A DNA stretch of 21,020 bases from an uncultured archaeon (GTDB lineage Archaea; Asgardarchaeota; Lokiarchaeia; Sigyniarchaeales; Promethearchaeaceae), in the NCBI GenBank assembly GCA_964426185.1, contig CAYRPF010000062.1, positions 1 to 21,020 on the forward strand, in the 5' to 3' direction. The notes beneath the pieces were generated by a model, which saw nothing but the letters and a program-made list of their open reading frames with translations, searched no databases and was not told the DNA's origin. Of the stretch, positions 1 to 21,020 are shown in pieces (position 1 is the stretch's first letter; each line of letters begins with the position of its first letter). The position numbers and the translations under genes are program-made.

Positions 1-245
1 AAATTGATGTAATCGCTGCGGGAACTACAGATGACACCACTACAGATGACACCACAACAGATGACACCACTACGGATGACACCACAACAGATGACACCAC
101 TACGGATGACACCACAACAGATGACACCGATAATGATGATTTATCCTTTGGTATAAACAACATTCCTGGTTTTAATCTCTGGATTCTCGTATTAGCGGTT
201 TCTATCACAGTTATTATTATTTTATGGAAAAGAATTGAGCGTTAA
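1..245 (+). CDS. 3' end of a surface/secreted protein with Thr/Asp-rich linker and C-terminal PGF-CTERM/Loki-CTERM-like sorting signal (5'-partial)
   Basis: Frame from base 3 reads IDVIAAG(TTDDT)7DNDDLSFGINNIPGFNLWILVLAVSITVIIILWKRIER, then TAA at 243-245. IPGF + hydrophobic helix + basic tail. Absent from the ORF track because it has no start codon in the window. Confidence 0.85.
   Translation, partial: IDVIAAGTTDDTTTDDTTTDDTTTDDTTTDDTTTDDTTTDDTDNDDLSFGINNIPGFNLWILVLAVSITVIIILWKRIER
24..128 (+). repeat. Coding tandem repeat, 7 x 15 bp (ACW ACR GAT GAC ACC) encoding TTDDT
   Basis: Units at 24, 39, 54, 69, 84, 99 and 114 differ only at synonymous positions. The last five alternate between two variants, giving a 30-bp higher-order period. 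Confidence 0.95.
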
Positions 246-327: not shown

Positions 328-723
328 TTATAGAATAAAACCGATTGATTGCAGCCTTTTTTCCACAAATTTCAAATACCGAGGATAACACCAAGAAATA
401 AATCGCATTGGAGAATTTTCAAGGGTAGAGCGTTCCAAAGCTTTAAAGTAAGGGTATTGGTTTTTATGCAAAATGAAGTTCATAATTAAACGTGAAATTC
501 GTCCATTTCCATCTTCAAAGGGTTGAATGAACACAAATTTATAATGAAAGACCGCAGCCAGAAAAGAAGGATTATATATTTCTCGATTTACATTATACCA
601 ATCAAATAATTCATTTAGCAAAATATCCAATTCATCACGAGATGGTGGTGGGACATAGTTGCTTCCATAAATAAAAACAGGCCCGTTACGAATTTGTCCC
701 GCATGATCTGGATGGATTTTTTT
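328..723 (-). pseudogene. Truncated Fic-family protein
   Basis: Fic-like frame extends upstream of the called TTG (HPDHAGQIRNGPVFIYGSNYVPPP...) to an in-frame TAA at 724-726 next to an A9 run, with no ATG. Motif reads IQPFEDGNGRISR (canonical HPFxDGNGRxxR), so the catalytic His is Gln. The segment after NQYP looks shortened. Confidence 0.75.
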
Positions 724-951: not shown

Positions 952-2139
952 TTAGATTATTCCTAATTTCTTGCCAACCTTTTCGATGGAAGTAAGGGCA
1001 TAATCCAAATCTTCTTTGGTCAACAGGGCATTCATCTGTACCCGAATTCGGGAAAGTTCACGGGCTACCATTGGAAAAACTATAGGTGTTGTAAATATAT
1101 TCTCCTCCTTGTAGAGAGTATCTGCCAAATTTTGAGCTTTTCCGGGTTCTCCAATAATTAATGGAATAATTGGTGTGCATGAATTTCCTGTATTAAAACC
1201 CAAATCTTGCACTTTTCCTCTGAAATATTCAGTATTTTTCCATAATATTTCCACATGCTCTGGTTCTTCCTCAATTACACTTATTGCAGCATCTGTTGCG
1301 GCGATAATAGCAGGAGGATGTGCAGTACTTAAGAGATAAGAACGGGATTTATTGCGAACATAATCAATTAATGCCTTTGAACCTGCCACCGAACCACCGA
1401 AAACTCCAAATCCTTTACTCAAAGAACCACCTTCTACATGAACTTTACCTTGCAAGTTAAAATGAGCCACAATTCCTCTTCCGTTTCCTAACATTCCTTC
1501 TCCATGACAATCATCTACATAAACCATTGCACCGTACGGTTCACATTTTTCTACAATTTTATCTAAAGGTGCCATATCACCATCCATGGAAAAGACTCCA
1601 TCTGTAATTACCAAAATTCGGCGCGCATTATCAGCATCGGCAATTTTTAATTGCTTTTCTAAATCTTCCATATCATTATGTTTATAAACTCCACGTTTTG
1701 CGCTTGACAATCGAACTCCGTCAATGATGGAGCCGTGATTTAATTGATCGGAAATAATATAGTCACCTTTCCCAACCAATTGGGGGATAACACCTTGATT
1801 AACCGCAAATCCTGTTTGAGCAATTAAAGCAGCTTCTACATGCTTAAACTTTGCTAAATGCTCTTCTGCTTTTCTGGTTAAATCGAATGTTCCTGCGATA
1901 ACAGGAACAGCTCCGGCACCCACTCCGTATTTCTCGATGGCATCTAGTGCTGCCTTACGGACTTTTGGATGAGTTGCCAAACCTAAATAATTATTAGTGT
2001 TTAACATTAAGACTTTTTTCCCATCTACTATTGTGTGAGCTTGTGAAGCCCCTTCTAAATGGCGAATAACCCAATTCAAGTGAGAATCATATAAATGTTT
2101 CAATTCTTCATGCAAAAATGCTTCTGGATCTCTTTTCAT
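952..2139 (-). CDS. kbl: Glycine C-acetyltransferase (2-amino-3-ketobutyrate CoA ligase), PLP-dependent AONS/KBL family
   Basis: Motifs NNYLGLA, SDQLNHGSIIDG, TDGVFSMDGD, DDCHG, SLSKGFG (PLP Lys), RIRVQ. Divergent from tdh. Confidence 0.88.
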   Translation of the reverse strand: MKRDPEAFLHEELKHLYDSHLNWVIRHLEGASQAHTIVDGKKVLMLNTNNYLGLATHPKVRKAALDAIEKYGVGAGAVPVIAGTFDLTRKAEEHLAKFKHVEAALIAQTGFAVNQGVIPQLVGKGDYIISDQLNHGSIIDGVRLSSAKRGVYKHNDMEDLEKQLKIADADNARRILVITDGVFSMDGDMAPLDKIVEKCEPYGAMVYVDDCHGEGMLGNGRGIVAHFNLQGKVHVEGGSLSKGFGVFGGSVAGSKALIDYVRNKSRSYLLSTAHPPAIIAATDAAISVIEEEPEHVEILWKNTEYFRGKVQDLGFNTGNSCTPIIPLIIGEPGKAQNLADTLYKEENIFTTPIVFPMVARELSRIRVQMNALLTKEDLDYALTSIEKVGKKLGII

Positions 2140-2470
2140 ATGTAATCCTTCCGAAAGTTAGTATTGAATAATTTGGTAGAAGATCTATATCAGCAATCTG
2201 GAAGATGTAACTACCCTATTGATTGCAATTATCATTTACTCCACACACAATATTAACTTTGTCATATTTTCGAGTGGAACTTATTCCCACAGAACTCAAT
2301 CAGAAAATGCACTGAATTACATATCTCCATTACTGAGAAGTAGATTGATAACAACATTTTTATGGAACGCAACGCTTGATCACCCACTTAATGGGTATTC
2401 TGCCAAATTCTTATGGTTATTCATGACCCATTGGTATTATCACCTAACAAACTCATCAGTTGAGATTACC

Positions 2471-3436
2471 GTGCCCAAAATTCTTGTAACTGGGGCTTTA
2501 GGCCAAATTGGGAGCGAATTAGTTCCCATGCTACGCAAAAAATATGGAAATGAAAATGTTATTGCCACCGATATTCGCCCTAATCCACCTATCTTCATCA
2601 CTAATACAGGTATATACGAAATCTTGGATGTTTTAGATGATGCTCGTTTAGAAGAATTGATCCAAAAATATGAAATTACTCATGTATATCATCTAGCAGG
2701 TATATTATCGGCCACGGGTGAAAAATTTCCACAGAAAGCATGGGATCTGAATATTAACAGTTTATTTTCAGTTTTAGAACTTGGTCGAAAATATGGATTC
2801 AAGCGAATTTTTTGGCCGAGTTCAATTGCTGCTTTTGGACCTACTACCCCGAAAGACAACACCCCAAATGATACGATTCTTCAGCCGAATACCATGTATG
2901 GGGTAACCAAAGTATCAGGAGAACTTTTATTAGAATATTACTGGTATAAATACGGATTAGATACGCGATGCATGCGATTACCTGGAATAATCAGTTCAGA
3001 AACACCTTGCGGCGGTGGAACCACGGATTATGCAGTCGAAATCTTTTATGAGGCAATAAAACATAAGAAATATACTTGTTTTGTTGGACCAGAAACAAAG
3101 CTTCCGATGATGTACATGCCTGATCTGTTGAATTCAATAATGATGTTGATGGAAGCAGACAACTCAAAATTGAAACATCATGTTTTCAATATTACAGCCA
3201 TGAGTTTCACTGCTCAAGAATTAGTTTCAGAAATTCAAAAACACATTCCAGATTTTACCGCAGAATATAAACCTGATTTCCGCCAATCTATTGCAGATTC
3301 TTGGCCCCGTTCAATTGATGATAGTGCCGCTCGTGAAGAATGGGGTTGGAAACATGAGTTTGGTTTACAAGAAATGACAAAAGATATGATTGAAAAATTA
3401 GAAAAAAAAACTAAAATCTTGAACCCTAAGCGCTAA
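2471..3436 (+). CDS. tdh: L-threonine 3-dehydrogenase, SDR/NAD-dependent epimerase type
   Basis: ILVTGALGQIG Rossmann motif, HLAGILSATGE, PSSIAAFG, YGVTK, GGGTTDYA, LPMMYMPD, ADSWP. Start moved to GTG 2471, where the family-like sequence begins. Paired with kbl. Confidence 0.9.
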   Translation: MPKILVTGALGQIGSELVPMLRKKYGNENVIATDIRPNPPIFITNTGIYEILDVLDDARLEELIQKYEITHVYHLAGILSATGEKFPQKAWDLNINSLFSVLELGRKYGFKRIFWPSSIAAFGPTTPKDNTPNDTILQPNTMYGVTKVSGELLLEYYWYKYGLDTRCMRLPGIISSETPCGGGTTDYAVEIFYEAIKHKKYTCFVGPETKLPMMYMPDLLNSIMMLMEADNSKLKHHVFNITAMSFTAQELVSEIQKHIPDFTAEYKPDFRQSIADSWPRSIDDSAAREEWGWKHEFGLQEMTKDMIEKLEKKTKILNPKR

Positions 3437-3480: not shown

Positions 3481-3514
3481 AAAAGAAAAAAAAAAATGAC
3501 CGTCAACACGGTCA
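3481..3514 (-). terminator. Hairpin + T-run terminator of the minus-strand operon
   Basis: Perfect 7-bp stem TGACCGT (3497-3503)/ACGGTCA (3508-3514) with a 4-nt loop. On the minus strand it is followed by a long T tract (complement of 3481-3496), ~50 nt after the stop at 3561. Confidence 0.65.
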
Positions 3515-3560: not shown

Positions 3561-4907
3561 TTATTCTTCTTTGATAAATTCGCAATCTTGTAAAATCTCT
3601 GTAATATCTGCCACGGTTAATCCAGAATTGCTTTCATTAGCTGCTTGATACAAGTTATTTTTACAAAAGACACAAGAACTTACCATCCACTCTGAATGAG
3701 TTTCTTCTGCTTCTTTTAATCGATCTGCTCGTAATATCTCTACACAATTTGAAGACTCACCCAAGCGATTCGTGGCGACAGTTGTGGCAAGTTCTCCATA
3801 AAGAGTTTTTACACCTCCCCCTGCACCGCAACATCTTGACATATTTCGAATGTGCTTCATTTCCACCAATTTTACGCCCTCGATCATCTTAATTAATTCT
3901 CTAGGTGGATCATAAACACCCATATATCGTCCTAAATGGCAAGGATCATGATAGGTAACAACAAGAGGATCTTCTTTTGTTCGTTTAGTATATTTTATGT
4001 TGATGTTGTGCTCTTTCACGTATTTCGGAACGAATTCCGCCATATGGTAAAGGTTGAATCCTAATTCCTCGCCTAGCAATCTGGGATATTCCAAAGATAA
4101 TGTTGAAAAACAGCCAGAACATGAAAATACAACATCTTCTACCCCAAAATCACGAATCATTTTAGTATTATGCTTAACCAAATCATGAATATGGTCTTCT
4201 AAACCAGTTCGATATGATACGGAACCACAACACCATTCATTTGGAAACAGAACAAACTCAATACCAAGCTTTTCTAATATAGTACACGTGGCAATAGCTA
4301 GCTCAGTATTCCTAAATGCTGAGGTACAGCCCACGTAATATCCTACTCGATACTTTTTCTTCTCAGAACCTGTTTCGATAGCCTTCAAAACTTCTATACC
4401 GCGTTTTAATGCTTTTTGTGCAGGAACACAATCCTTCGTCCAATTAAATCGATCGTCTGGATTTTCATTATATGGATTTTTTAACTTTCCAACCCTTTCA
4501 TCCAAAATACCCAATTTCCTAGGAAGAACACCTTTGTGAATGGCATCCTTTCGAAATTTTTGAAATACTTTGACTGTATCTATCCCTACGGGGCAAACTT
4601 CGCGACAATTCCCACATAGAGTACAGCGAAAAATACTATCCACAATTCCTTCCTTGTCGAAGCTTATTTCTTTATTGGCCAGTGCCTTGAGGATCCTGTT
4701 ACGACCTCCAGCATAATCTAACTCACTATACGTCACATCGTAAACCCGGCAAACACTTCGACAATACCCGCATTCTACACATCGTTGGAAATCATCTGTT
4801 AATATGCGAGGTTCGAGTAAATTATCTCGGTGTGGAGAAAATAGACCTGCTACGGGGGGACCAGTGGTAACTATGTTTTTAACATCACTACTTTTATCTT
4901 TACTCAT
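3561..4907 (-). CDS. Fe-S oxidoreductase, GlcF/GlpC/HdrD-like (two 4Fe-4S motifs + two CCG domains)
   Basis: CVECGYCRSVC and CTLCGNCREVCP; GCTS..CCG..CSGC; HDPCHLGR..CCGAGGG..CVFC. Start moved to ATG 4907, preceded by AGGAGTGA, which removes the overlap with the upstream gene. Confidence 0.88.
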   Translation of the reverse strand: MSKDKSSDVKNIVTTGPPVAGLFSPHRDNLLEPRILTDDFQRCVECGYCRSVCRVYDVTYSELDYAGGRNRILKALANKEISFDKEGIVDSIFRCTLCGNCREVCPVGIDTVKVFQKFRKDAIHKGVLPRKLGILDERVGKLKNPYNENPDDRFNWTKDCVPAQKALKRGIEVLKAIETGSEKKKYRVGYYVGCTSAFRNTELAIATCTILEKLGIEFVLFPNEWCCGSVSYRTGLEDHIHDLVKHNTKMIRDFGVEDVVFSCSGCFSTLSLEYPRLLGEELGFNLYHMAEFVPKYVKEHNINIKYTKRTKEDPLVVTYHDPCHLGRYMGVYDPPRELIKMIEGVKLVEMKHIRNMSRCCGAGGGVKTLYGELATTVATNRLGESSNCVEILRADRLKEAEETHSEWMVSSCVFCKNNLYQAANESNSGLTVADITEILQDCEFIKEE

Positions 4908-4926
4908 TTTTTTCACTCCTTCACTT

Positions 4927-6390
4927 TTAACCCAATCTATAAAGGAACTTTGCAATTGCAAATAAGAGTTGAACCCTCCAAAATTTCATTTTTGCTTTAA
5001 TAAATCGATATGAATTAACCAAATCGTCTGGATCAAGCTTTTCTTTCAATTTTTTCATGTATTCTACCTTTTCGCGGTTATATTTCAGAAAATAGAAGGT
5101 ATTAACCACTCCGATAGAATAGAGGCTATCTTGTTGGCTGAAAGCAAATTTGGCTAATTTATTAAAACCTGCTTTAATCCCAAAAAATTCTCTAGAATTA
5201 TCGATATCAGACAGCCCAAAAATCTTTATTCGATTACATCCTTCGACCCCGGCCATAATGTAAAAGGCATTTTTATAGTCAACATTCTTGATTTCTTTAG
5301 CATATTTCTCGTAAAATGCTTGGCATCTCTCATCAGCAATCCAATACTCTTGAAATACAGGATTTCGACATAGTCGACCCAAATTTAATTCTGTATCTGC
5401 TATATCTCTCCATTTCTCCTTTAAATACCACTCTTCAGCACTAAGTCCATCATATTTTTGGGCGATTTCTTTAGCATAAGCTATTGCTTTTCCAGTTTGT
5501 TCCGGATTGTCTAAAAATACACCATATACAAAGAAATTTCGGGACGGTAATGTCTTATGAGCCAATTTTTCAAATTTCTTATTTGAAAGTGAAAGGAAAA
5601 ATGGTTTATTGACGGTATTCTCTTTCAAACCCAAATAATACTCAAATGCTTTACTGAAAGTTTTGAAACCATATCCGACTATTTCCAGCGATGTACTCAT
5701 ATGGGTAATTTTCATTTCTACTTCTGCAATGGCACCATAAATACCTAGAGATCCCACGATATCATCCAGTTTTAGTTCTCCTTTTGATTCTTCAGAAATT
5801 TGCTCAATTGTGCCATCTGGTTTAACAATCGTAACAGATAAAATCGAGTCTCGGATGCTCCCGTGCTTCAGAACCCCGATGCCTGCTTTACCAGCAGAAG
5901 CAACATAACCACCAAGACATGATGCTTTGTAACTGGTAGGATAACAAGTTGGGGCTAAACCATAATCAAGTAGTTTTTCCATGAGTTTCAACCATGAAAT
6001 ACCTGCATCACATTTCACTATCATATTGTTCACATCGATTTTATGCACAGAGTTCATCCTTCGTGTATCGATGATTGCTCCTCCTCTGGTTGGAGAACTC
6101 GCCGAAAAACAAGAAGTTGCAGCCGCTCGAATGGTGACAGGAATTGAATATTCTCGGCATTTCCTCATAACTTTCGAGAGCTCTTCCGTGTTTCTTGGGC
6201 GTATAACAAAGCTCGCCCGAAATTCTTCTTTAAATTTATAGTGATATTTCGGTAGAAGAGATAGATCACTGGAAGTTACTTCAATCTCGTAAGGGTCTGT
6301 ACTGAAATCAGAAGGAGAGATGATCTCTTGCATTTCTTTAGTAAAGCTTTGAATTTGTTCCAATTTTTGTGTTTTATCCATTTTTATCAT
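4927..6390 (-). CDS. FAD-binding oxidoreductase, VAO/PCMH (GlcD/D-lactate dehydrogenase-like) family
   Basis: VIRPRNTEEL..PVTIRAAATS, CDAGI, YPTS..CLGG, GSLGIYGAI.E, and C-terminal LKEKLDPDDLVN. Adjacent to a GlcF-like gene. Confidence 0.85.
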   Translation of the reverse strand: MIKMDKTQKLEQIQSFTKEMQEIISPSDFSTDPYEIEVTSSDLSLLPKYHYKFKEEFRASFVIRPRNTEELSKVMRKCREYSIPVTIRAAATSCFSASSPTRGGAIIDTRRMNSVHKIDVNNMIVKCDAGISWLKLMEKLLDYGLAPTCYPTSYKASCLGGYVASAGKAGIGVLKHGSIRDSILSVTIVKPDGTIEQISEESKGELKLDDIVGSLGIYGAIAEVEMKITHMSTSLEIVGYGFKTFSKAFEYYLGLKENTVNKPFFLSLSNKKFEKLAHKTLPSRNFFVYGVFLDNPEQTGKAIAYAKEIAQKYDGLSAEEWYLKEKWRDIADTELNLGRLCRNPVFQEYWIADERCQAFYEKYAKEIKNVDYKNAFYIMAGVEGCNRIKIFGLSDIDNSREFFGIKAGFNKLAKFAFSQQDSLYSIGVVNTFYFLKYNREKVEYMKKLKEKLDPDDLVNSYRFIKAKMKFWRVQLLFAIAKFLYRLG

Positions 6391-6396
6391 CTCTTT

Positions 6397-7173
6397 TTAT
6401 ACGTTCGTAAATTCAATAAAAAATCCTAAAAGATAAGCCAACCACCAGCAACCTAGGGTGGTATATCCTGTAACTTTTGCCAGTCTTCGCTGGCCTGATA
6501 GCCCGAATAAGGCGCTAGCAAATCCGAATGTCAAGCCCATGGCCCCACAAATTATATGTAATGCATGAATCCACCCTGAATAACCCTTCATGATTTCTTG
6601 GCTTAACGAAAACAATAAGAGTACATTTAGAAATGTAATTATCCATGCACCTCCAGCGCTAAAACCATGATATAATGTGAACTTTGGTTCATTATAGATG
6701 ACGATAATAGTTCCTATGGTGACTAAGATTAATGCAGGGAGACCCAACGTTGAGCCTAAATGAAGACTGTCATATTGAATAATTCCATCAACCCAAATTT
6801 TTATTGCTATAAAGAATAGAAAGAAATAAAACACGGCAAGAACCCCAAGGAAAATACCCTTATTAACATCTTTTTTAAGGTGTTCTGATAATAAAATCCC
6901 GCTAATAGTCACAATCATTATACAAATTGTGATTATGAATAACCAGATTTCAATTAGGTTCAATGCTACAACTGTAATTTCATATACTCCAATTACAAGT
7001 AAAGCTAAAAGCAATAACATAAGAGGGGTGATTAGAAGAATCAATTGCTTTTTCTTATCTCCTCTTTTGAAATAGTCTATAAATAAAATTGTTCCAAGTA
7101 AAATCAACATAATTGCAATTGTAATAGTAATTTGAACAATTCTAAGCGGTTCTAATTCTGTTATGTTTACCAT
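6397..7173 (-). CDS. Integral membrane protein (~8 TM); C-terminal 4 TM resemble DUF420/cytochrome b561-like proteins
   Basis: About eight hydrophobic segments. His138, His169, His203 and His206 lie at helix starts. Terminal helix is RRLAKVTGYTTLGCWWLAYLLG. Confidence 0.6.
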   Translation of the reverse strand: MVNITELEPLRIVQITITIAIMLILLGTILFIDYFKRGDKKKQLILLITPLMLLLLALLVIGVYEITVVALNLIEIWLFIITICIMIVTISGILLSEHLKKDVNKGIFLGVLAVFYFFLFFIAIKIWVDGIIQYDSLHLGSTLGLPALILVTIGTIIVIYNEPKFTLYHGFSAGGAWIITFLNVLLLFSLSQEIMKGYSGWIHALHIICGAMGLTFGFASALFGLSGQRRLAKVTGYTTLGCWWLAYLLGFFIEFTNV

Positions 7174-7188
7174 GATAATTCCCTTCTT

Positions 7189-8715
7189 TTAATCTGAATT
7201 CTCCTTCATTAATTTTCGTTTTTTTATATAAGATCTAAAGACAATGAAGATTCCCAATACAAATCCTAGGATCATAATCCAAACACCAACAAATGTCCAA
7301 ATCATGGTCGGATGTAGGCCGTCTTCAACAACGTCAAATGGTGAACGCATCATATATGCATTGGCAGCTGTGAAAGCCCAAGTTCCCCCAATCCCCAATA
7401 ACCATGCGGAGATTGTTTTTAATTTGCTTTTTTCTCGGTGAAAATGATTAATTATAATTAAAATTAACAATTCCGCCAGTAATACCGCAAGAACATGCCA
7501 ATGACCAACGTTAAAATCATATTCAACATCGAACCATTCGTGCAATCGATAAATTTCCCTTGTTTGGAGGCCAACGATAATACCACAAATGGTGACGACT
7601 ATTTGGGCATAGAGATAGATCCAATATAAATTAAATAATACTGGATCTCCAAGCATACCTTTCAATTTGGTACCAAAAGAGGCAGATTCATATTTTTCTC
7701 CTAAATAATCTTTTGAAATCTCTATTAAGCCATTTACAGAGAGAGCAATGGTGCAGAGAATTAGTATTCCTGCTCCAACCCAGATTAAATAATGGTTTAA
7801 TACCCATGCGCCGTAAGAAATACATAGAATTCCAATTGGACATAAGAAGAGCATGATTTGATAAACTTTGCCTTTAATTTTAGAAATTTTATAACCAATC
7901 ATGGTAATCATGGCCGCAGTTAGAGACAGCTGAATATGAAGATGAGATACAATAAACTCTTCTGGATAGTCGTGATGTATAATTTTAACTACTTCTTCTG
8001 CGAGAAATGCATCTTGATTTAGCCTTTCTAATCCCCAAATTGAATTTGTAAAAACTTCCATCCCCGCCAGCGCTCCATAAGCCACAGAAACAAGGACACA
8101 AAATGCTAGAAGGACCATAGAATAATTTTCAAGATCTAAACCGTAGAATAGTGCCCCCTCTGTCGCTTTCTCTGGATCTGGAAATTTATTAGGCACAGGC
8201 CATGATGCAACGATAAAAAGAACTCCACCAAAAAAGACCAAAAACAACCCAAAGATGAATAATTCATGAAAAACTCGAATCCGAGTATAAGCAAAAATTA
8301 ATCCACAAATTCCAGACACGAACGAGCCACTTACTATTGTTACTTTCATGCTGGGAATATATTTTTCTCTTACCTCAAAGTATTCTAAACACCAAAAGGT
8401 GGTTTCGGCTACAAAAGGTGTTGCAATTGAATGGTATATCAAAACAAGCCGGGCAGATCTTCCCATGATTGCATCATCGTAGATGTTGAATAATGGATCT
8501 CCTCCCCAAATAAAGGATAATGGTTCAGAAAAAGTGAGAAGGAATAAAACTTGACAACTTAACAAGATAATCAAGCTGATGTGGATTTTATCAAAATTAT
8601 ATCGCTTCTCTTCCTTTAATACTTGAGTTTCCATAGGGCTTTCTATCGATTCGTTTGGAGAAACGGGTTTTTCTTCCGTGATCTCCTTCACTATATTGGT
8701 ATCATTAACTGTCAT
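7189..8715 (-). CDS. 12-TM His-rich membrane protein, possible distant heme-copper oxidase subunit I homologue
   Basis: Twelve hydrophobic segments counted by eye. YHS (H95, TM2), SHLH (H258/260, TM6), GHWH (H405/407, TM10). ATG directly abuts the upstream TAA and is preceded by AGGAGTGA. Confidence 0.6.
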   Translation of the reverse strand: MTVNDTNIVKEITEEKPVSPNESIESPMETQVLKEEKRYNFDKIHISLIILLSCQVLFLLTFSEPLSFIWGGDPLFNIYDDAIMGRSARLVLIYHSIATPFVAETTFWCLEYFEVREKYIPSMKVTIVSGSFVSGICGLIFAYTRIRVFHELFIFGLFLVFFGGVLFIVASWPVPNKFPDPEKATEGALFYGLDLENYSMVLLAFCVLVSVAYGALAGMEVFTNSIWGLERLNQDAFLAEEVVKIIHHDYPEEFIVSHLHIQLSLTAAMITMIGYKISKIKGKVYQIMLFLCPIGILCISYGAWVLNHYLIWVGAGILILCTIALSVNGLIEISKDYLGEKYESASFGTKLKGMLGDPVLFNLYWIYLYAQIVVTICGIIVGLQTREIYRLHEWFDVEYDFNVGHWHVLAVLLAELLILIIINHFHREKSKLKTISAWLLGIGGTWAFTAANAYMMRSPFDVVEDGLHPTMIWTFVGVWIMILGFVLGIFIVFRSYIKKRKLMKENSD

Positions 8716-9357
8716 TTAATGCTTCACTCCTTTTTGTCTTTTTCTAGCAATTGTGCGCCTTATCACCAAGGGGATCATTACAATTACAGAACATACCAAA
8801 GTTGGGACAACTGCTTCTATAATATGATGTTCTGGGTCATACCATGGATGCCCTGAAATTAAAGTCTGAGTAAAGCTACCGTTCATATTGCAATATGCAG
8901 TAACTACAACTAATGTCCATTCAGGGCATTCTATGGTATAATTATAATGAATGATTAGATCTTCAGCTTGGCTTGTATAATTTACTTCTAGTTTTAAAGT
9001 TTTATTCATTTCGTTAAGATCTATCACGTCGAAGACATCTCCTTCTTTAATCTTTATTGTTCCGAATCTTTCGATTTCTCCTTCACCCACAATTTCACGA
9101 CTAGGATCTGATGTGAATTCTTCTATCAATGAATCCGGAAGTTGACAAAATTCAATTTTCACCTTGTTTATGTAATGGCGACTTGAATTTGATATACCAT
9201 GTACAATATAGACGCTTAAGACTTGATCATCTTCATAATACTTAAGATCTATATATCTGGGATCATGGGCGCTAATATTCTTAACACCGGTGGTAAAACT
9301 GATGATCATTATGAAGAACATAAGCGAAACCCATATCTTTTTTTTATTTATTTTCAT
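8716..9357 (-). CDS. Exported, membrane-anchored desulfoferrodoxin/superoxide-reductase-like protein
   Basis: Signal peptide ending ISA|HDP; VH(53)G, RH(61)YI, AYC(156)NMNG (SOR has HYI...YCNxHG). C-terminal TM helix and basic tail. Confidence 0.6.
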   Translation of the reverse strand: MKINKKKIWVSLMFFIMIISFTTGVKNISAHDPRYIDLKYYEDDQVLSVYIVHGISNSSRHYINKVKIEFCQLPDSLIEEFTSDPSREIVGEGEIERFGTIKIKEGDVFDVIDLNEMNKTLKLEVNYTSQAEDLIIHYNYTIECPEWTLVVVTAYCNMNGSFTQTLISGHPWYDPEHHIIEAVVPTLVCSVIVMIPLVIRRTIARKRQKGVKH

Positions 9358-9447: not shown

Positions 9448-9459
9448 CTTATATATAAG
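9448..9459 (-). promoter_or_regulatory. Candidate TATA box for the 5-gene operon
   Basis: Palindromic CTTATATATAAG ~90 bp upstream of ATG 9357, preceded on the minus strand by purine-rich GGTAAAAA (BRE-like). Confidence 0.4.
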
Positions 9460-14428: not shown

Positions 14429-14770
14429 TTAGAGATTTGCTTTTTCTGGAGGACATCCGTATTGATCTCGCACTTTACAGCGATCTCGAGTGGATGAGCC
14501 TTCACAATCGGCACATTCAACTTCACGAAGCATGTTAAGTATTTCGTCATTTGAGCGGGGTTTAACATCGCTATCATCGGCTAACATTTCATCTTCCATT
14601 TCTTCTAGATCTTCTTCAAAACCATCGGGGCCATCTTCTTCTTCATCGATTTCATCGTCCTCGATAGGTGCCTTTTTAGGCTTTGATTTAGCTCCAGTTT
14701 TCTTGGTAGATTTCTTTGCAGCGGCGGTGCGCTTAGTTTTCTTCGCGCCTGTAGTTTTCTTTTTCGCCAT
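14429..14770 (-). CDS. Small protein: Lys/Ala/Thr-rich N-tail, Asp/Glu tract, C-terminal Cys4 motif
   Basis: MAKKKTTGAKKTKRTAAAKKSTKK..., EDDEIDEEED..., C-x2-C-x8-C-x7-C-PP. T-rich tract after the stop. Confidence 0.8.
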   Translation of the reverse strand: MAKKKTTGAKKTKRTAAAKKSTKKTGAKSKPKKAPIEDDEIDEEEDGPDGFEEDLEEMEDEMLADDSDVKPRSNDEILNMLREVECADCEGSSTRDRCKVRDQYGCPPEKANL

Positions 14771-14969: not shown

Positions 14970-16061
14970 TTAGACATCCAAATGTAGAACTTTCTGATTA
15001 CGCGTTGCTCCAGCCGCATAACCACGATCTTTTTGGAATTTACGGCGCAAAGACTGAAATACCAAATCAAGAGGAATGTTCATTGGACAATTTGTTGCGC
15101 ATCGCCCGCATTCAACACAAGTATCACCCACATGAGTAAATCGGGTCGTGATGAACATGACAGGATCCATGGTTTTCGCTTTCACTTGCGCGGTCAAATT
15201 GCAAACTGTACAATAACATACTGCGCAAGATTTTACGCAAATCCCACAACCTGTACACTTGGTTAATAGCATAAACCGATCTTCATCGGCTAAAAATGCA
15301 TCTAAATCTTTTTCACGTTTGGCTGCGCATCTATCGATGATATTTTGGGCGATATTTTCGTATTTTTCGCCAAGTGCTGCATCGATTGCTTTGGAATCCC
15401 ACCCTAAATTCTTAATAACATTTCGAGCCCGATCGGATTGAGGGGTTAAAATGTAGTTTTCCGCATCTTCAGAGACGCTGTAGGTACTCAATAAGAAATC
15501 TGCCAGCGAATGGCTTTTTTCAACACAGCGGGTGCAGTTTCCGGCCACATTGAAACTATCTGAGAGTTTTTCTTTTTTCAAAGAACCATCTTTCATATGA
15601 AGAATAAATTCTGTTTCGGTGAGTTTCTCGCTTAAAATTGCAGATTCATCGATTTTTTCCTTTTTGAACCATTTTCTCAACAGTTTATTGGGAAGATAAC
15701 CCATGTCGTGAAAACCAATCAAGAACAGATTTTCCCACTTCAGTTGTTTTTTCTTCTCCAGTTCAACCATGGCTCTTATATCGCACGCTCGTGCTACCAC
15801 TGCTACGGAAATATCTAAGGCTTTTTTGGTATGCAAAAGTGTATTTGCAGCAGAATCGGTGCGGGTATAGCCGTATGTTAGCAATTGGCTTAAAGGGAAA
15901 TTTTCAAGTTTCTTAGGATCAGAAACAAATTCCGGCACTATCGCATAGCGATTTTTCTTTTCGACGCCCGAAAGGACTTCAGAAACATAGCTTTTTTCCA
16001 GCAAATAAGAAAGTAATTGTATGAATTCCGGTTTAGTAATTGAATATCGTGTGAGGGACAT
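14970..16061 (-). CDS. FdhB/FrhB-like (F420-dependent dehydrogenase beta subunit family) protein with C-terminal 4Fe-4S motifs
   Basis: VAVVARACDIRAMVEL..LIG, NCTRC, ADF, CTGCGICVKSCAVCYCTVC, HVGDTCVECGRCATNCPMNIPL. Start is ATG 16061 or GTG 16079. Confidence 0.82.
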   Translation of the reverse strand: MSLTRYSITKPEFIQLLSYLLEKSYVSEVLSGVEKKNRYAIVPEFVSDPKKLENFPLSQLLTYGYTRTDSAANTLLHTKKALDISVAVVARACDIRAMVELEKKKQLKWENLFLIGFHDMGYLPNKLLRKWFKKEKIDESAILSEKLTETEFILHMKDGSLKKEKLSDSFNVAGNCTRCVEKSHSLADFLLSTYSVSEDAENYILTPQSDRARNVIKNLGWDSKAIDAALGEKYENIAQNIIDRCAAKREKDLDAFLADEDRFMLLTKCTGCGICVKSCAVCYCTVCNLTAQVKAKTMDPVMFITTRFTHVGDTCVECGRCATNCPMNIPLDLVFQSLRRKFQKDRGYAAGATRNQKVLHLDV

Positions 16062-16207
16062 GATGTAGGTAATCTCCACGTCGATGTAATTGGAAATTGG
16101 ATAATTAAACGAACTATAAGCAGATCAATATGGGATGAATTATGAATGTTTGCTACCCCCTTTACCCGATCAATAACCTACGATAGTAATGCAATTTATT
16201 CTCACAA

Positions 16208-17032: not shown

Positions 17033-18067
17033 ATGCAAAAAATGGCTCTATGGCACCTCTATCACACCATGTTAAAAACTCGTTGTTATGAAGAACTGGT
17101 TAAGAAATTGTGGGAAGAAGGCTTAATTCAAGCGGAGATGCACATGGGAATTGGGGAAGAAGCTTTGATGGCAGCAATCTTTTCTCAATTAAACGACAAA
17201 GATGCAATCGCAGTTGACCATCGCGGAACAGCACCCATGCTCCTTAAAGGTGTTGATCCCGTATCTTTACTCCTGGAATTTATGGGTCATGAAAAGGGGC
17301 TCTGTAAAGGAAAAGGTGGACATATGCATCTTTTTTCGAAAAAACACCTTGCAGCTTCTTCAGGTATAGTAGGTGCAGGAGGACCAAACGCTTGTGGGTT
17401 TGGTTTGGCAGCAAAATATCAGAAAACAGGAGGAATTGCAGTAGGTTTTTTTGGAGAAGGTGCCATGAATCAAGGTATGCTGTTAGAATCCATGAATTTG
17501 GCTGCGACTCTTAGGTTGCCGGTTCTTTTCGTATGTAAAGATAATGGTTGGGCGATTGCCACTCAGTCAAGAAAAGTAACAGCAGGGAGTCTTGTAGAAC
17601 GGGCAAAGGGATTAGGATTGCATGTTGTAGAGGTTAATGGATTGGATTCGGAGGAAACTTGGCAGGTTTGTCATGAGGTAATTCCAAAAATTAGAAAAAA
17701 ATCAGAACCCTATTTTCTCTATGCTCAAGTCATGCATAGAGAAGGTCACTTTCTCGGCGATCCTTTGCTACGATTTTATCATTCTCCCAGTAAGATGATA
17801 GCAGATACGACGGGACCGTTAATTAAATCGGTAACCAAATTGAAAGGGGCAGGCATTCATAAAAGAGCGGGGAGTTTAATAACAATATTTTCTCTTATCG
17901 CAAAATTTCACCAGCAGTTAAAAGATACTAAAGATCCGCTCCTGATACTCTTCAAAAAATTGAAAGAAGATAAAGATCATATAGTAAAAATTGAAAAAGA
18001 AGTGGAAGAAGAAATAAATCAAATTCTTGCTAAAACTCTGGCAATTTACGAAGGAGGGATGATTTAA
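17033..18067 (+). CDS. TPP-dependent 2-oxoacid/acetoin dehydrogenase E1 alpha subunit
   Basis: HMGIGEEA, DHR, GLCKGKGGHMH, SGIVG, TPP motif GEGAMNQG...KDN, EGH. Confidence 0.9.
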   Translation: MQKMALWHLYHTMLKTRCYEELVKKLWEEGLIQAEMHMGIGEEALMAAIFSQLNDKDAIAVDHRGTAPMLLKGVDPVSLLLEFMGHEKGLCKGKGGHMHLFSKKHLAASSGIVGAGGPNACGFGLAAKYQKTGGIAVGFFGEGAMNQGMLLESMNLAATLRLPVLFVCKDNGWAIATQSRKVTAGSLVERAKGLGLHVVEVNGLDSEETWQVCHEVIPKIRKKSEPYFLYAQVMHREGHFLGDPLLRFYHSPSKMIADTTGPLIKSVTKLKGAGIHKRAGSLITIFSLIAKFHQQLKDTKDPLLILFKKLKEDKDHIVKIEKEVEEEINQILAKTLAIYEGGMI

Positions 18068-19077
18068 TGAAAATTATGCACTTTACTGAAGCAATTGATG
18101 ATGCACTGGCTCAAGCGATGGGAGAAGATAAAAAAATTATAATGATGGGAGAAGATATTCACGCACTTCGGTTGACCTTATTTTCTCGCTTTGGAAAAGA
18201 TCGGGTAATCTCCACACCTATTAGTGAAAGTGCTTTTCTGGGTACAGGCGTTTCAGCAGCCATGGCCGGTTTGAGACCCATTGTGGATTTATACATGGTC
18301 GATTTCCTTGGCGTAGCAATGGATGCTTTACTAAATCATGCTACAAAGAATTACGATTTCTCAGGAAATAATTGGAAAGTTCCTTTGGTAATTAGAGCTG
18401 GCTGTGGTGGTGGATATGGAGATGGGGGTCAGCATGAGCAGAGTTTATGGGGTTGGGCAGCGCATCTTCCCAATTTAAATGTGGTTGTTCCCTCAAATCC
18501 CGCAGATGCAGGTGGGTTAATGCTTTCAGCTGTTCAATCGGAACATCCGGTTTTATTTTTAGAACATAAACTGCTCTCAGAAGTTTACCGAGATTACTTA
18601 GGGCATGGAGGGCGGGATACAGTCCAATATAATATTCCTCCAGCGGGAGAAAAGGGCGAAGTGCCGGAAAAATGGGAACCTATACCATTTGGAAAATTAA
18701 AGGTATTAAGAGAAGGAACAGATATAACTTTGGTAAGTTTGGCCGTTGGCGTACATCGTTGTATGGAGGTGGCTTCAATTCTTGAGAAATCGGGTATTTC
18801 TGCAGAAGTGATTGATCTTCGTACAGTTCAACCGCTGGATGAAGAAAATTTGATTAAATCGGTCGAGAAAACCAAAGCAATTTTGGTTATAGATGAAGAT
18901 TACAAGCGTTTTGGACTATCTGGAGAAATTTCTGCAATTCTCTTGGAAGCAGGACTGGTTTTTAAATTCGGTCGAGTATGTACTGAAACTGTAATACCCT
19001 TTTCAAGAAAATTGGAAGAAGATACACTCCCAAATACCGAAAAAATAACTCAGCTGGCCTACAAAGTGCTAAAATAA
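18067..19077 (+). CDS. 2-oxoacid/acetoin dehydrogenase E1 beta subunit
   Basis: MGEDI, TPISESAFLG, GLRPIV, GGQH, PSNPADAGG, LEHK, IDLRTVQPLD. TAATG overlap with the alpha gene. Confidence 0.9.
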   Translation: MKIMHFTEAIDDALAQAMGEDKKIIMMGEDIHALRLTLFSRFGKDRVISTPISESAFLGTGVSAAMAGLRPIVDLYMVDFLGVAMDALLNHATKNYDFSGNNWKVPLVIRAGCGGGYGDGGQHEQSLWGWAAHLPNLNVVVPSNPADAGGLMLSAVQSEHPVLFLEHKLLSEVYRDYLGHGGRDTVQYNIPPAGEKGEVPEKWEPIPFGKLKVLREGTDITLVSLAVGVHRCMEVASILEKSGISAEVIDLRTVQPLDEENLIKSVEKTKAILVIDEDYKRFGLSGEISAILLEAGLVFKFGRVCTETVIPFSRKLEEDTLPNTEKITQLAYKVLK

Positions 19078-19132: not shown

Positions 19133-19582
19133 TTAGTTAGAGCGGGGTTTAAAGCCAATATCCCACCGATAAATAGGCTGACCTTCCTTATCCTTCCCAA
19201 TTTCGGTCTTTAAAAAGGTGGTCTTCACAGGCATTCCAATCCAATAAGTTTTCGGATCATTTTCATCGATATCAACCAGCTGACCTGAAACAGAAGGACC
19301 TTCATCCATCTTTACCACCGCAAAAACATACGGATGCTTTCTATCGTATCCTTTCTTTGTCATAACTTCAGAACCAACATAGATGGCGGTAAATGTCTCG
19401 AGCGTGCCGTTTCCGGAGAATTCCATCCATTCTGATTCAGCCAGGCAAGCGGAGCAAAGTCGTCGAGGAGGCAGATCGATGTTCCCGCATTGAGGACATT
19501 TTGCACCCATTACCTTCTTTTGGCTCAAGTACTCAAAATATTGATTCACAGAAATCTTTGATGTTGTTGACATATTTGACAT
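19133..19582 (-). CDS. DUF35 Zn-ribbon/OB-fold acyl-CoA-binding protein
   Basis: CPQCG..PPRRLCSAC, GTLETFT, PYVFAVV, IGMPV, FKP. GGAGGA RBS. Directly downstream of the thiolase. Confidence 0.9.
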   Translation of the reverse strand: MSNMSTTSKISVNQYFEYLSQKKVMGAKCPQCGNIDLPPRRLCSACLAESEWMEFSGNGTLETFTAIYVGSEVMTKKGYDRKHPYVFAVVKMDEGPSVSGQLVDIDENDPKTYWIGMPVKTTFLKTEIGKDKEGQPIYRWDIGFKPRSN

Positions 19583-19594
19583 AATTAATCCTCC

Positions 19595-20869
19595 TTAGAT
19601 TTTCTCCTTGGTGATGATGCTCACCACGGCAGTAGCTCCTGAACCGCCTAAATTATGAGTCATTCCCGCTTTTAGGTTTTTCTTTACTTGACGTTCACCT
19701 TCAGCATATTCCCTCAATTGTTTGAAAATTTCCACTACCTGACCGGCTCCCGTGGCACCGACTGGATGACCTTTCGTTTTTAAACCTCCACTGGTATTTA
19801 CCGGTAATTTTCCATCTCGGCGGGTTTCACCTCTGGCAATACCTTTTACGGCATCTCCAGGTTGATAAAAACCAAGATCTTCCAAAGCAATTAATTCAGC
19901 AATGGTAAAGCAGTCATGAACTTCGACTAAGTCAATATCTTTCGGAGTTAATCCGCTCATTGAATAGGCAGTTTCTGCAGCTGTCTTTGTCGCCTGCAGA
20001 GATGTAATAGCGCCATCCTTCCGATCATGCAAGCTTAAAGAATCACTCCCTTGACCAATTCCGCTGATCCAAAGCGGTTCATCGGTGAAATCATATGCTC
20101 GCTCTTCTGACGCCAGAAACAGCATAGCAGCACCATCAGTAATCAAACTGCAATCGTAAAGTCTTAAAGGGGCAGCAATCAGAGGATTTTTCGAAGATTC
20201 CAAGAAATCGAATTCATCTTTCCAATCAGGCTCGGGTTGACCCTTAGCTGCTGCTCTTTTACGATATTTTTCCATTACTTCTGGGATAGTGCTCTGAACT
20301 TGAGCAAACGGATTATGTTTCCCGTTTTCATAGTCTTTTATAGCTATCCTCATCAAATCTTTGGATGTGGTCCCATATTTATGAAAGTGTGCATTCGCAA
20401 TTGCCCCATATAAGCCTGGAAATGTGGCACCTGCATAGTATTCATAAGTAGTATCCGCCGCGGCCGCCAAAGCGCTGGTCACGCCGGTTGTATTTAACTC
20501 ATGCATTTGTTCCACACCCCCCACGCACACCACGTCATTTACTCCGGAAGCTATGCTCATAACACCTTGCCTGAATGCAATTCCCGAACTGGCGCAAGCA
20601 CCTTCAAACCGGGAAGCAGGTTTGGGATTTAAACCAATTAAATTTGCCATTTGAGGTGCCATATGTCCTTGATGATTGAACAAATCAGCAGTGAAATTTC
20701 CCAAGAAAAGTTCATCAATATCTTTAGAATCTATTCCTTTATCGGTTAATTTCTTGGCTTCCAGCCATGCTTCCTGCCATAGGTCGATGCTTCGCAGTTT
20801 GGGATAATGAACTCCAAAACGAGACATTCCAGCGCCAACCAAAGCAACTCTTCTTTGTAATTTTCCCAT
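19595..20869 (-). CDS. Archaeal/SCP2-type thiolase (acetyl-CoA acyltransferase)
   Basis: EGACASSG (catalytic Cys), DCSLITDGAA, EVHDCFT, NTSGGL, KGHPVGATG, HNLGG. Start moved to ATG 20869, preceded by GGTGA. Confidence 0.92.
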   Translation of the reverse strand: MGKLQRRVALVGAGMSRFGVHYPKLRSIDLWQEAWLEAKKLTDKGIDSKDIDELFLGNFTADLFNHQGHMAPQMANLIGLNPKPASRFEGACASSGIAFRQGVMSIASGVNDVVCVGGVEQMHELNTTGVTSALAAAADTTYEYYAGATFPGLYGAIANAHFHKYGTTSKDLMRIAIKDYENGKHNPFAQVQSTIPEVMEKYRKRAAAKGQPEPDWKDEFDFLESSKNPLIAAPLRLYDCSLITDGAAMLFLASEERAYDFTDEPLWISGIGQGSDSLSLHDRKDGAITSLQATKTAAETAYSMSGLTPKDIDLVEVHDCFTIAELIALEDLGFYQPGDAVKGIARGETRRDGKLPVNTSGGLKTKGHPVGATGAGQVVEIFKQLREYAEGERQVKKNLKAGMTHNLGGSGATAVVSIITKEKI

Positions 20870-21020
20870 AAAATAGTTCACCAAATATAAAATTCTTGAT
20901 TAAAGATCAATCAAAAAATGTCATTAAATGCAAGTATGTTTCTATTTATGCAATTTTATTTAAATGATACCCACTTAGTTCTAAAAAAAATTATAGATGG
21001 GATTTCAAAATAGATTAAGA

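Follow-up and report, generated by a model that had tools for sequence, protein, structure and literature searches.

The window analysed here, a stretch of 21,020 nucleotides from a Lokiarchaeales genome, carries on its minus strand five co-directional ORFs between positions 3561 and 9357, with intergenic gaps of 0, 15, 6 and 19 bp. The ORF coordinates bear out the tight, co-oriented arrangement reported in the initial annotation of this DNA. The locus is composed of the following features, given in the direction of transcription; the last three genes are referred to below as the trio.

9448..9459, no strand assigned: TATA-like palindrome CTTATATATAAG, about 90-100 bp 5' of the first gene (identified by sequence, function presumed)
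8716..9357, minus strand: gene for the candidate SOR-fold ectoprotein (213 aa; exported, with a C-terminal anchor)
7189..8715, minus strand: gene for the 12-TM HCO-fold protein (508 aa)
6397..7173, minus strand: gene for the His4 membrane anchor (258 aa; about 8 TM)
4927..6390, minus strand: gene for the FAD-linked oxidoreductase (487 aa; VAO/PCMH family)
3561..4907, minus strand: gene for the GlcF/HdrD-like Fe-S protein (448 aa, counted from the ATG behind GAAGGAGTGA)
3486..3514, minus strand: hairpin (3497-3514) and T run, between the end of the operon and a convergent threonine dehydrogenase gene

The TATA-like palindrome pointed out earlier is present; on the minus strand it is preceded by an A-rich, BRE-like stretch, and a similar TTTATATATA is found at a comparable upstream place in the relatives L033, L036 and L040. 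RBS-like motifs, which had been described for the operon, stand ahead of four genes, while the FAD gene has a weak one only. The downstream hairpin with its T run likewise exists (fold z = -2.3 for positions 3497-3514), but terminator-like sites as a class are no commoner than chance (2 found by the scan vs 4.0 expected), and in view of this count and of its position between convergent genes the hairpin taken alone does not rise above chance. A sigma-70 scan gave matches at chance level.

The 508-aa protein has no Pfam match, PF00115 included, among the 39 members searched, none of which matched NnrS in Pfam at E 0.1, and NCBIfam and PDB sequence searches gave no match. Its AF2 model (pLDDT 87) was compared with known structures by VIA and aligns with the cbb3 oxidase 3mk7 at Z 22.9 and an rmsd of 3.8 Å over 396 residues; ten HCO/NOR chains top the VIA list (Z 19-23), the next unrelated fold reaching Z 10.7, and all 50 of the Foldseek matches listed are HCO or NOR chains. 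The HCO-like label given earlier is therefore confirmed for the fold. The protein consists of three homologous four-helix units, the HHalign comparisons of its thirds giving probabilities of 85-97% (E 6e-6 to 7e-10). This 12-helix, three-fold architecture is common to HCO subunit I (cbb3 CcoN 3mk7, cNOR NorB 4xyd, ba3, bo3 and aa3), as are a helix-II His, a helix-X HxH, a link to heme O synthase and a membrane-anchored outer beta-sandwich partner. The 12-TM protein differs from HCO subunit I by an identity of 9-13%, by having no PF00115 match, no helix-VII His-His and no cross-linked Tyr, by an additional HxH in helix VI and a His where helices IV and VIII begin, and by a partner of SOR fold or FGE fold instead of CuA or cytochrome c.

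Seven His are conserved in the 12-TM protein (H95, H150, H258, H260, H308, H405 and H407), as well as R89, Y143, E240, R390 and E398. The seven His and the Arg/Glu residues are kept in at least 117 of 121 homologues, and H95, H405 and H407 in all 121, the counts for H258 and H260 being partly circular because the Anaerolineae rows of this alignment were filtered on containing HLH. In a distant set to which no such filter was applied, invariance is limited to H258 and H405; conservation is 90% for H95 and H407, and H150, H260 and H308 are missing in some archaeal members. At the sequence level (alignment prob 68%, E 5e-5), H95 corresponds to the helix-II His of COX1 and GHWH to AHFH; the heme ligands of helix II and helix X thus appear to be matched, with an uncertain register for H95, and two His registers are possible, one following the COX1 alignment and the other the alignment of the internal repeats. 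Active-site definitions (Murali et al. 2024, PMC11214002) give the O2 reductases (A/B/C) a CuB on three His, and the NO reductases (cNOR, qNOR, eNOR, sNOR, gNOR, nNOR and bNOR) a high-spin heme with FeB/CuB on three His (two plus Asp in gNOR) and Glu/Gln. Both helix-VII His are missing here: this helix ends in GAWVL, without His, and the HH of COX1 aligns to non-His residues. No Tyr suited to cross-linking is found four residues after H258 or H260, none is conserved in helix VII, and the invariant Y143 sits in another unit. Since the canonical binuclear centre is absent, the mechanisms known for O2 and NO reduction cannot be carried over directly to this protein; E240, E398, H260 and H308 could form an alternative, putative site.

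Heme O synthase (cyoE), which had been missed in the initial annotation, accompanies the 12-TM protein more constantly than any other partner. In HCOs heme O is known to occupy the ligand-binding site, and it is also the precursor of heme A. The cyoE gene is present in 52 of the 54 Asgard genomes carrying the 12-TM gene, 38 of these without COX1, and the 12-TM gene is present in 38 of the 41 Asgard genomes that have cyoE but no COX1. In the genome studied here cyoE lies on another contig (C47:2558-3424), and the five-gene block is consequently not the self-contained chain that it had been taken for, its constant partner being encoded elsewhere. This CyoE scores 199 bits against TIGR01473 (cut-off 210), the linked homologues scoring 196-214 with TIGR01473 as best family each time, and it groups with the operon-linked copies in a cyoE tree whose long branches leave the direction of transfer unresolved. 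COX1, COX2 (PF00116), CtaA, CydA and HemB were found neither in this genome nor in four relatives, so that no other consumer of heme O is visible in these Loki carriers; no MenA/UbiA quinone prenyltransferase was recognised in this genome. All five Anaerolineae (5/5) have a second cyoE beside the 12-TM gene, in addition to a cox-linked CtaA-CtaB fusion. Three further membrane genes accompany the 12-TM gene elsewhere and are scattered in this genome; they are assigned no role in the model proposed below.

The association with cyoE could also point to heme handling, the 12-TM protein capturing, modifying or delivering a prenylated heme (CtaA-like or in uptake) in heme-auxotrophic cells, and the trio taking electrons from heme or prenyl oxidation. 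The 12-TM gene adjoins cyoE as ctaA does, hemB is absent in 5/5 Loki carriers, and prenol-kinase-like and isopentenyl-phosphate kinase genes come after cyoE. We nevertheless find heme handling very improbable, as neither COX1 nor another consumer of heme A is present in the Lokiarchaeales carriers and the cox locus of the Anaerolineae already has CtaA-CtaB; a heme A synthase-like role is in addition disfavoured by the fold, which is that of an HCO and not of heme A synthase.

The ectoprotein encoded by the first gene has a signal peptide, a mature chain predicted to begin at H31, and six N-glycosylation sequons. The protein itself gave no match in Pfam, NCBIfam and PDB sequence searches, and PF01880 matched at E 0.014 in one relative. 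Its top Foldseek matches are neelaredoxin-type SORs (E 4e-4; model pLDDT 70), a ranking which agrees with the earlier SOR-like label; an Ig-like SOR fold is assigned with modest confidence, because the VIA comparison with SOR (Z about 7) is level with that of other Ig folds. The candidate metal site is of the His3Cys type (H31/H53/H61/C156), with H53, H61 and C156 invariant and H31 kept in 12 of 15 aligned members. The fourth His of SOR (CxxH) is missing in 15/15, which read C156-x-x-(N/G/E/Q)-G. The fold and the H..H..H..C ligand order are common to 1Fe superoxide reductase (neelaredoxin), from which the Loki protein differs in being exported and membrane-anchored, in lacking the fourth His and in the acidic insertion of its subfamily; canonical SOR identity is ruled out by the missing His and the export. 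With the first His as predicted N-terminus, the site would be histidine-brace-like.

The complex of the SOR-like and 12-TM proteins was predicted with a score of 0.66 (best control 0.00). Among solved complexes 58 of 80 attain the mark used, and among mismatched pairs 2 of 110; the prediction is rough, since hemes and own alignments were used. At least 78% of the contacts agree between runs, with a partner pLDDT of at least 80. The SOR-like protein is thus predicted to cap the 12-TM protein, which gives a predicted inter-subunit interface of the kind that had been suggested as a check on the operon. The external metal site had been regarded as the end of the chain; the heme-bearing 12-TM protein is the likelier, putative reaction site, and the outer His/Cys site would serve as an accessory cap.

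No family match was obtained for the 258-aa protein in Pfam, NCBIfam and PDB sequence searches, and its earlier DUF420/cytochrome b-like label is not supported. HHalign against an Asgard DUF420 and against COX3 gave probabilities of about 1%, the Atlas leads (0.83 and 0.78) are weak, and identity with either family is unsupported. In cytochrome b561 each of four helices contributes one His to two bis-His hemes, a pattern that does not occur here. The last four helices form a bundle with four His (H138, H169, H203 and H206), three outer and one inner, spread over three helices, the last helix having none; all four are invariant down to 28% identity. The gene is always located directly 5' of the FAD gene, and paralogues are fused to exported CxxCH/CH domains. 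The protein is probably a heme-b membrane anchor for the FAD/CCG pair.

The FAD enzyme matches PF01565 (E 5e-30), and the Fe-S protein matches PF13183 and, twice, PF02754, with two cubane [4Fe-4S] motifs and two CCG domains; the best PDB match of the latter is the iron-sulfur-binding reductase 9ojn (E 2e-34). The GlcD/GlcF-type pair proposed earlier holds insofar as a FAD_binding_4 enzyme goes with a CCG Fe-S partner, but the metal motifs of 2-hydroxyacid dehydrogenases (HAGDGNxH and EHGxG) are absent from the FAD enzyme. Their places are taken by xxGxxGxxR and LY(S/T)xG, the invariant Y424 occupying the position of the His in the HGIG motif of LctD, and the GlcD model gives 94 bits vs a cut-off of 568. 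Judged by its motifs, the enzyme belongs to an Asgard VAO/PCMH subfamily without the 2-hydroxyacid metal ligands and is not a canonical GlcD; a 2-hydroxyacid was rejected as its substrate because the His/Glu metal ligands are missing. The top PDB match of the enzyme is alkyl-DHAP synthase, with the alignment confined to the FAD domain. HdrDE, GlcDF, LctD and the 9ojn-type ETF:quinone reductase share with this set the combination of a FAD_binding_4 enzyme, a protein with 2x[4Fe-4S]/2xCCG and a His-rich membrane subunit; the Loki set is set apart by the missing His/Glu metal ligands and by an anchor that matches no family. Taken together, the products carry the candidate redox ligands noticed from the start, namely conserved His, a His/Cys site, a FAD domain, and two cubane and two CCG motifs.

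The FAD enzymes of the five-gene operon form one clade (99/98), the sister of which consists of copies whose anchor bears an exported c-heme domain beside ccmF/ccmA, in loci that also adjoin multiheme cytochromes. We read the two trios as the same wire with a different outer end. The c-type heme ends and adjoining cytochromes of the sister trio, the multiheme cytochromes added in 8/80 Anaerolineae loci and the SOR fold on the outside would also suit an all-bis-His multiheme wire without gas chemistry, in which the three pores hold electron-transfer hemes and the SOR-like site is terminal, serving metal oxide, humics or a syntrophic partner outside, or the oxidation of superoxide or Fe(II). By symmetry, the repeat register would pair H95/H258 and H260/H405 across the pores. 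Such a wire seems to us quite unlikely, since it offers no easy explanation for a dedicated heme O synthase, the odd His count leaves one site open and the SOR-like site is one His short.

The 12-TM gene is spread over many Asgard families (54 of 301 genomes) and hundreds of bacterial genomes, mostly Anaerolineae, with 389 stretches confirmed by an alignment-based scan. The order 12-TM-(cyoE)-anchor-FAD-CCG is kept in 12/12 same-order loci from two families, with gaps of 0-300 bp, and the cultured P. syntrophicum has the same five-gene block. The membrane genes and the FAD/CCG pair, on whose linkage the proposed operon depended, are thus linked in these 12 loci, while the five-gene combination is limited to Lokiarchaeales; the His/Cys ligands of the 12-TM, SOR-like and anchor proteins are conserved, as had been anticipated. 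The SOR-like gene is found in 76 genomes without the 12-TM gene, the trio without the 12-TM gene in at least 8 Loki genomes and about 30 of another family, and the 12-TM gene without an adjacent trio in 39 Asgard genomes outside Lokiarchaeales and 80 Anaerolineae-type loci. In Lokiarchaeales, three modules that are also found singly are combined into a mosaic: HCO-fold protein and CyoE; the trio of His4 protein, FAD enzyme and CCG protein, elsewhere with c-type heme ends; and the SOR-like ectoprotein.

This independent occurrence would be compatible with co-regulation only, the three modules sharing a stress- or heme-responsive promoter in Lokiarchaeales instead of forming one chain; the trio would then be a membrane-anchored dehydrogenase passing electrons to an acceptor of its own, and the 12-TM/CyoE module would rely, as elsewhere among Asgards and in Anaerolineae, on the three small membrane proteins and on other donors. 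The better conservation of cyoE and these three membrane genes than of the trio as 12-TM neighbours, and the SOR-like gene being inverted, 2.6-3.2 kb off or on another contig in 5/12 loci, argue in the same direction. The constant gene order, the dedicated FAD clade, the separation of the two trio types in genomes that have both and the predicted cap argue against it, and we consider it unlikely.

Starting from the genes, folds, ligand conservation, cyoE linkage, dedicated FAD clade and predicted cap obtained computationally, we infer the heme content, the path and direction of the electrons, the acceptor and the absence of a quinone as follows. A cytoplasmic substrate would reduce the FAD enzyme, and electrons would travel via [4Fe-4S] clusters of the cubane and CCG types to the His4 heme anchor, then to the hemes of the 12-TM protein. 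The latter would be a divergent member of the HCO superfamily without a copper site, binding two or three hemes, at least one of them prenylated heme O made by the dedicated CyoE from scavenged heme b, and would serve as the electron sink at the end of a short chain that probably involves no quinone. The SOR-fold ectoprotein would lie over the outer mouth, subunit II-like, and add a His3(amine)Cys Fe/Cu site. We give an even chance to such a heme-O-dependent sink for NO (or O2), fed without quinone and serving detoxification and not respiratory growth; within this reading NO reduction is somewhat more probable than O2 reduction. More tentatively, and at less than even probability, the family may represent a separate, widespread HCO-superfamily branch able to reduce NO or O2 although it lacks a CuB/FeB centre of known type. 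Its members would be heme proteins with three pores in a nearly symmetric arrangement, served by a heme O synthase of their own and covered by an exchangeable cap, of SOR fold in Lokiarchaeales and of FGE fold in Anaerolineae; the Loki copies would be wired to a flavin/Fe-S donor.

HCO-homology (HCOH) proteins, including NnrS, belong to a context of NO detoxification. They are said to have been described by Pei et al. in 2014, most three-unit HCOHs reportedly keeping two His. They resemble the 12-TM protein in having three four-helix units and no CuB site, and the 12-TM family differs in keeping seven His versus two and in having its own CyoE; it may be one of these HCOH families. A literature search, with most subscription papers outside its coverage, found neither the family nor the operon described.

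Sequence searches miss the 12-TM protein, and the Loki host has no recognised terminal oxidase; in two recent preprints on the oxygen metabolism of Asgards, Cox is confined to Heimdallarchaeia (10.1101/2025.02.26.640444; 10.1101/2024.07.04.601786). The 12-TM protein would explain why Loki- and Thor-type genomes that lack COX1 retain heme O synthase. Should it reduce NO or O2, lineages deemed to be without terminal oxidases, P. syntrophicum included, would have a sink for these gases, the scoring of aerotolerance and nitrosative-stress defence in the relatives of eukaryotes would change, and an active-site design would be added to a long-studied enzyme superfamily. The protein would also be a candidate for the missing NOR of nirS-positive Anaerolineae: NirS is present in 3 of 4 Anaerolineae carriers, where the single PF00115 match is the cox-linked oxidase. 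NirS is absent from the Loki genome studied here, for which NO would therefore be external. The leads towards NO come from few, related MAGs. The Anaerolineae operon further contains a Crp/Fnr regulator without Cys cluster and an FGE-family lipoprotein, and TTGAC-N4-GTCAA-type boxes were found in 15/80 Anaerolineae loci vs 0 in shuffled sequences. A YgbA (PF11756) gene lies near Loki loci, and a flavodiiron protein gene is located ahead of the P. syntrophicum copy.

The operon lies in the window, contig C62 of a Lokiarchaeales genome that is 92% complete and whose proteins match Promethearchaeota/Lokiarchaeales, and comprises, in order of transcription:

8716-9357, minus strand: exported SOR-like protein
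7189-8715, minus strand: 508-aa 12-TM protein
6397-7173, minus strand: 258-aa membrane anchor
4927-6390, minus strand: FAD enzyme
3561-4907, minus strand: CCG Fe-S protein

The five co-oriented genes with gaps of 0, 15, 6 and 19 bp were confirmed on the sequence, as were the RBS-like motifs, the palindrome (9448-9459) and the hairpin (3497-3514), sites of the latter class being no commoner than chance. P. syntrophicum has counterparts of the three hypothetical genes (DSAG12_01127, DSAG12_01126 and DSAG12_01125). The gene layout of the initial annotation is confirmed, and its interpretation, a self-contained electron chain across the membrane, is partly supported. The reading we favour, at roughly an even chance, is that the system may work like a heme-copper oxidase (HCO) or NO reductase (NOR) terminal reductase.

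Pfam, NCBIfam and PDB sequence searches with the 12-TM protein returned no match, nor did those with 39 diverse members of its family. Its AlphaFold model is confident (pLDDT 87) and bears out the proposed HCO-like fold, with Z scores of 22.9 against cbb3 and 19.9 against cNOR subunit I, the next unrelated fold reaching 10.7. All among the Foldseek matches listed were HCO or NOR, at E above 0.001, and the three four-helix units are still mutually alignable. The distant homologues P0198, P0268 and P0288 carry long C-terminal extensions, with an FGE-family domain in P0198 and a beta-propeller in P0288, supporting an exchangeable outer domain. In another genome, G261, two divergent 12-TM paralogues flank a SOR-like gene (L041:7706-14289).

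Conservation of the seven His (95, 150, 258, 260, 308, 405 and 407) was verified; together with R89, Y143, E240, R390 and E398 they are kept in 117 or more of the 121 homologues aligned from Asgards and Anaerolineae, the Anaerolineae rows having been pre-filtered on HLH, which makes the H258/H260 counts partly circular. Profile alignment to Asgard COX1 matches H95 with the heme ligand of helix II and GHWH with AHFH, and finds neither the helix-VII His-His nor the cross-link Tyr; by the active-site definitions of O2 reductases and NORs (PMC11214002), the protein therefore qualifies neither as an O2 reductase nor as one of the NORs described so far. In the first of two candidate layouts H95/H407 would hold a low-spin heme, H405 a high-spin heme, H260/H308 a reduced metal site and H258/H150 a third site; in the second, following the repeat register, H95/H258 and H260/H405 would bind bis-His hemes and H407 an open heme. 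Either would leave one open site; that the system is a plain multiheme wire seems to us unlikely. It stands outside every defined family in a comparison made apart from the HCOH families of Pei et al. 2014, and our literature search found no paper describing the 12-TM family or operon. An HCO-family subunit adjoining a cyoE in genome G181 (L210:1464-3140, minus strand) has altered active-site motifs, HYI for HP.VY, LYH for HH and HGT for HFH.

Contrary to the earlier claim, the block is not self-contained: the heme O synthase gene cyoE is a recurrent partner, adjoining the 12-TM gene in 33 of 39 Asgard loci, and here lies on contig C47, with genes which in the closest relatives come after the operon. 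Among 301 Asgard genomes the 12-TM gene occurs in 54, with cyoE in 52 of these; 38 of the 41 Asgard genomes with cyoE and without COX1 have the 12-TM gene; and in the two most-sampled Lokiarchaeales families both genes occur in the same 15 genomes and neither alone, counts that include kin and are hence not independent. The pairing recurs in Anaerolineae (73/80 loci), where all five genomes tested hold a 12-TM-linked cyoE besides a CtaA-CtaB fusion at the cox locus. COX1, COX2, CtaA, CydA and HemB are all absent from the host genome and four relatives; heme is therefore probably scavenged, the 12-TM protein being the only visible heme O consumer. Heme handling as the function of the system is improbable in our estimate; a terminal reductase remains our preference, and a heme O synthase dedicated to the system is consistent with a high-spin heme that binds gas, be it NO or O2. 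Downstream of cyoE at four loci (L193, C47:31-5255 of the host genome; L033; L040; L192) come a prenol-kinase-like gene and one for an isopentenyl phosphate kinase, which suggests prenol salvage for heme prenylation.

Structure comparison upheld the SOR-like fold of the exported protein, whose site consists of three His and one Cys; in contrast to SOR, the fourth His is absent, and the amine of H31, the predicted first residue after cleavage, may complete the site. When it was co-folded with the 12-TM protein and two hemes, the score was 0.66, and the best control scored 0.00. The mark applied, which 58 of 80 solved complexes and 2 of 110 mismatched pairs attained, is roughly applicable here; runs agree in at least 78% of contacts, with partner pLDDT of at least 80. 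In the predicted complex the SOR-like protein lays its ligand face (31-39, 48-61, 158-162) over the outer ends of 12-TM helices II, VI and X and packs its C-terminal helix against the bundle, a cap predicted to sit much as HCO subunit II does. We know of no such complex. Three helices of the anchor carry four invariant His between them. It showed no match to DUF420, cytochrome b561 or COX3, and its former DUF420/cytochrome b-like label is unsupported; context suggests a heme-b anchor. The FAD enzyme lacks the GlcD/LctD metal ligands, in contrast to the GlcD-type enzymes, oxidisers of 2-hydroxyacids, to which it was first likened, and the Fe-S protein is, as suspected, of ordinary GlcF/HdrD type. 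No quinone prenyltransferase was recognised in the incomplete host genome, which fits direct electron transfer.

The supposed linkage of the membrane genes to the FAD/Fe-S pair stands in 12 of 12 same-order loci (12-TM-(cyoE)-anchor-FAD-CCG), the SOR-like gene lying immediately upstream in seven, but the modules also occur apart. P. syntrophicum keeps the order without cyoE. Outside Lokiarchaeales the 12-TM gene neighbours cyoE, a regulator and three small membrane proteins, the latter common to Asgards and Anaerolineae and without Pfam match; these families (about 205, 235 and 270 aa) are found at L194, L195 and L193 (host contigs C63, C61 and C47) and at Anaerolineae loci L077-L156. Anaerolineae loci add an FGE-family lipoprotein, in one case fused to the 12-TM protein. 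The trio of anchor, FAD enzyme and Fe-S protein also occurs without the 12-TM gene, adjoining ccmF/ccmA and multiheme cytochromes, its anchor fused to an exported CxxCH or CH domain. The FAD enzymes encoded by this operon group as a separate clade (99/98), whose sister group is made up of the cytochrome-linked copies; both types coexist in several genomes. We read the trio as a transmembrane wire duplicated once, one copy of which serves the 12-TM protein alone. Of 301 Asgard genomes, 91 carry the SOR-like family, in 76 cases with no 12-TM gene; a co-regulated mosaic is doubtful, if the least so of the alternatives to a terminal reductase. A large conserved cluster in family f9 genomes (L185-L188), a candidate extracellular electron-transfer locus, has four FAD/CCG pairs of the subfamily without metal ligands, two His4 anchors, of which one bears a fused exported domain with heme motifs, as well as a flavin amine oxidase, DUF2231, a multiheme cytochrome and ccm genes.

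As to the substrate the 12-TM protein may reduce, the leads favour NO. NirS is present in three of four Anaerolineae carriers, where the sole PF00115 gene is cox-linked, and the Anaerolineae operon has a Crp/Fnr regulator lacking conserved Cys, plus FNR/DNR-like boxes. YgbA is encoded close to Loki loci with either type of trio, 12-TM-linked or cytochrome-linked, and a flavodiiron protein precedes the P. syntrophicum copy. NO regulons include FGE-like NirV proteins, Dnr-type regulators and YgbA. The host genome lacks NirS, and the role there would therefore be defence against outside oxidants.

The rest of the window encodes:

3-245, plus strand: surface-protein C-terminus, DDTTT tandem repeat, then PGF-like motif, TM helix and basic tail (archaeal sorting signal)
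328-630, minus strand: short Fic-domain-like fragment (QPFEDGNGR), probably truncated
952-2139, minus strand: PLP aminotransferase-I/II enzyme, 2-amino-3-ketobutyrate CoA ligase-like
2219-3436, plus strand: NAD-dependent epimerase-family protein, threonine dehydrogenase-like
14429-14770, minus strand: 113-aa protein with Lys/Ala-rich N-terminus, acidic tract and four-Cys tail, no convincing Pfam match
14970-16079, minus strand: FdhB/FrhB-like Fe-S protein, ordinary in appearance
17033-19077, plus strand: TPP dehydrogenase E1 alpha/beta pair, likewise ordinary-looking
19133-20884, minus strand: DUF35-like protein and thiolase, also ordinary-looking

The divergent pair at 952-2139 and 2219-3436 is ordinary threonine catabolism.
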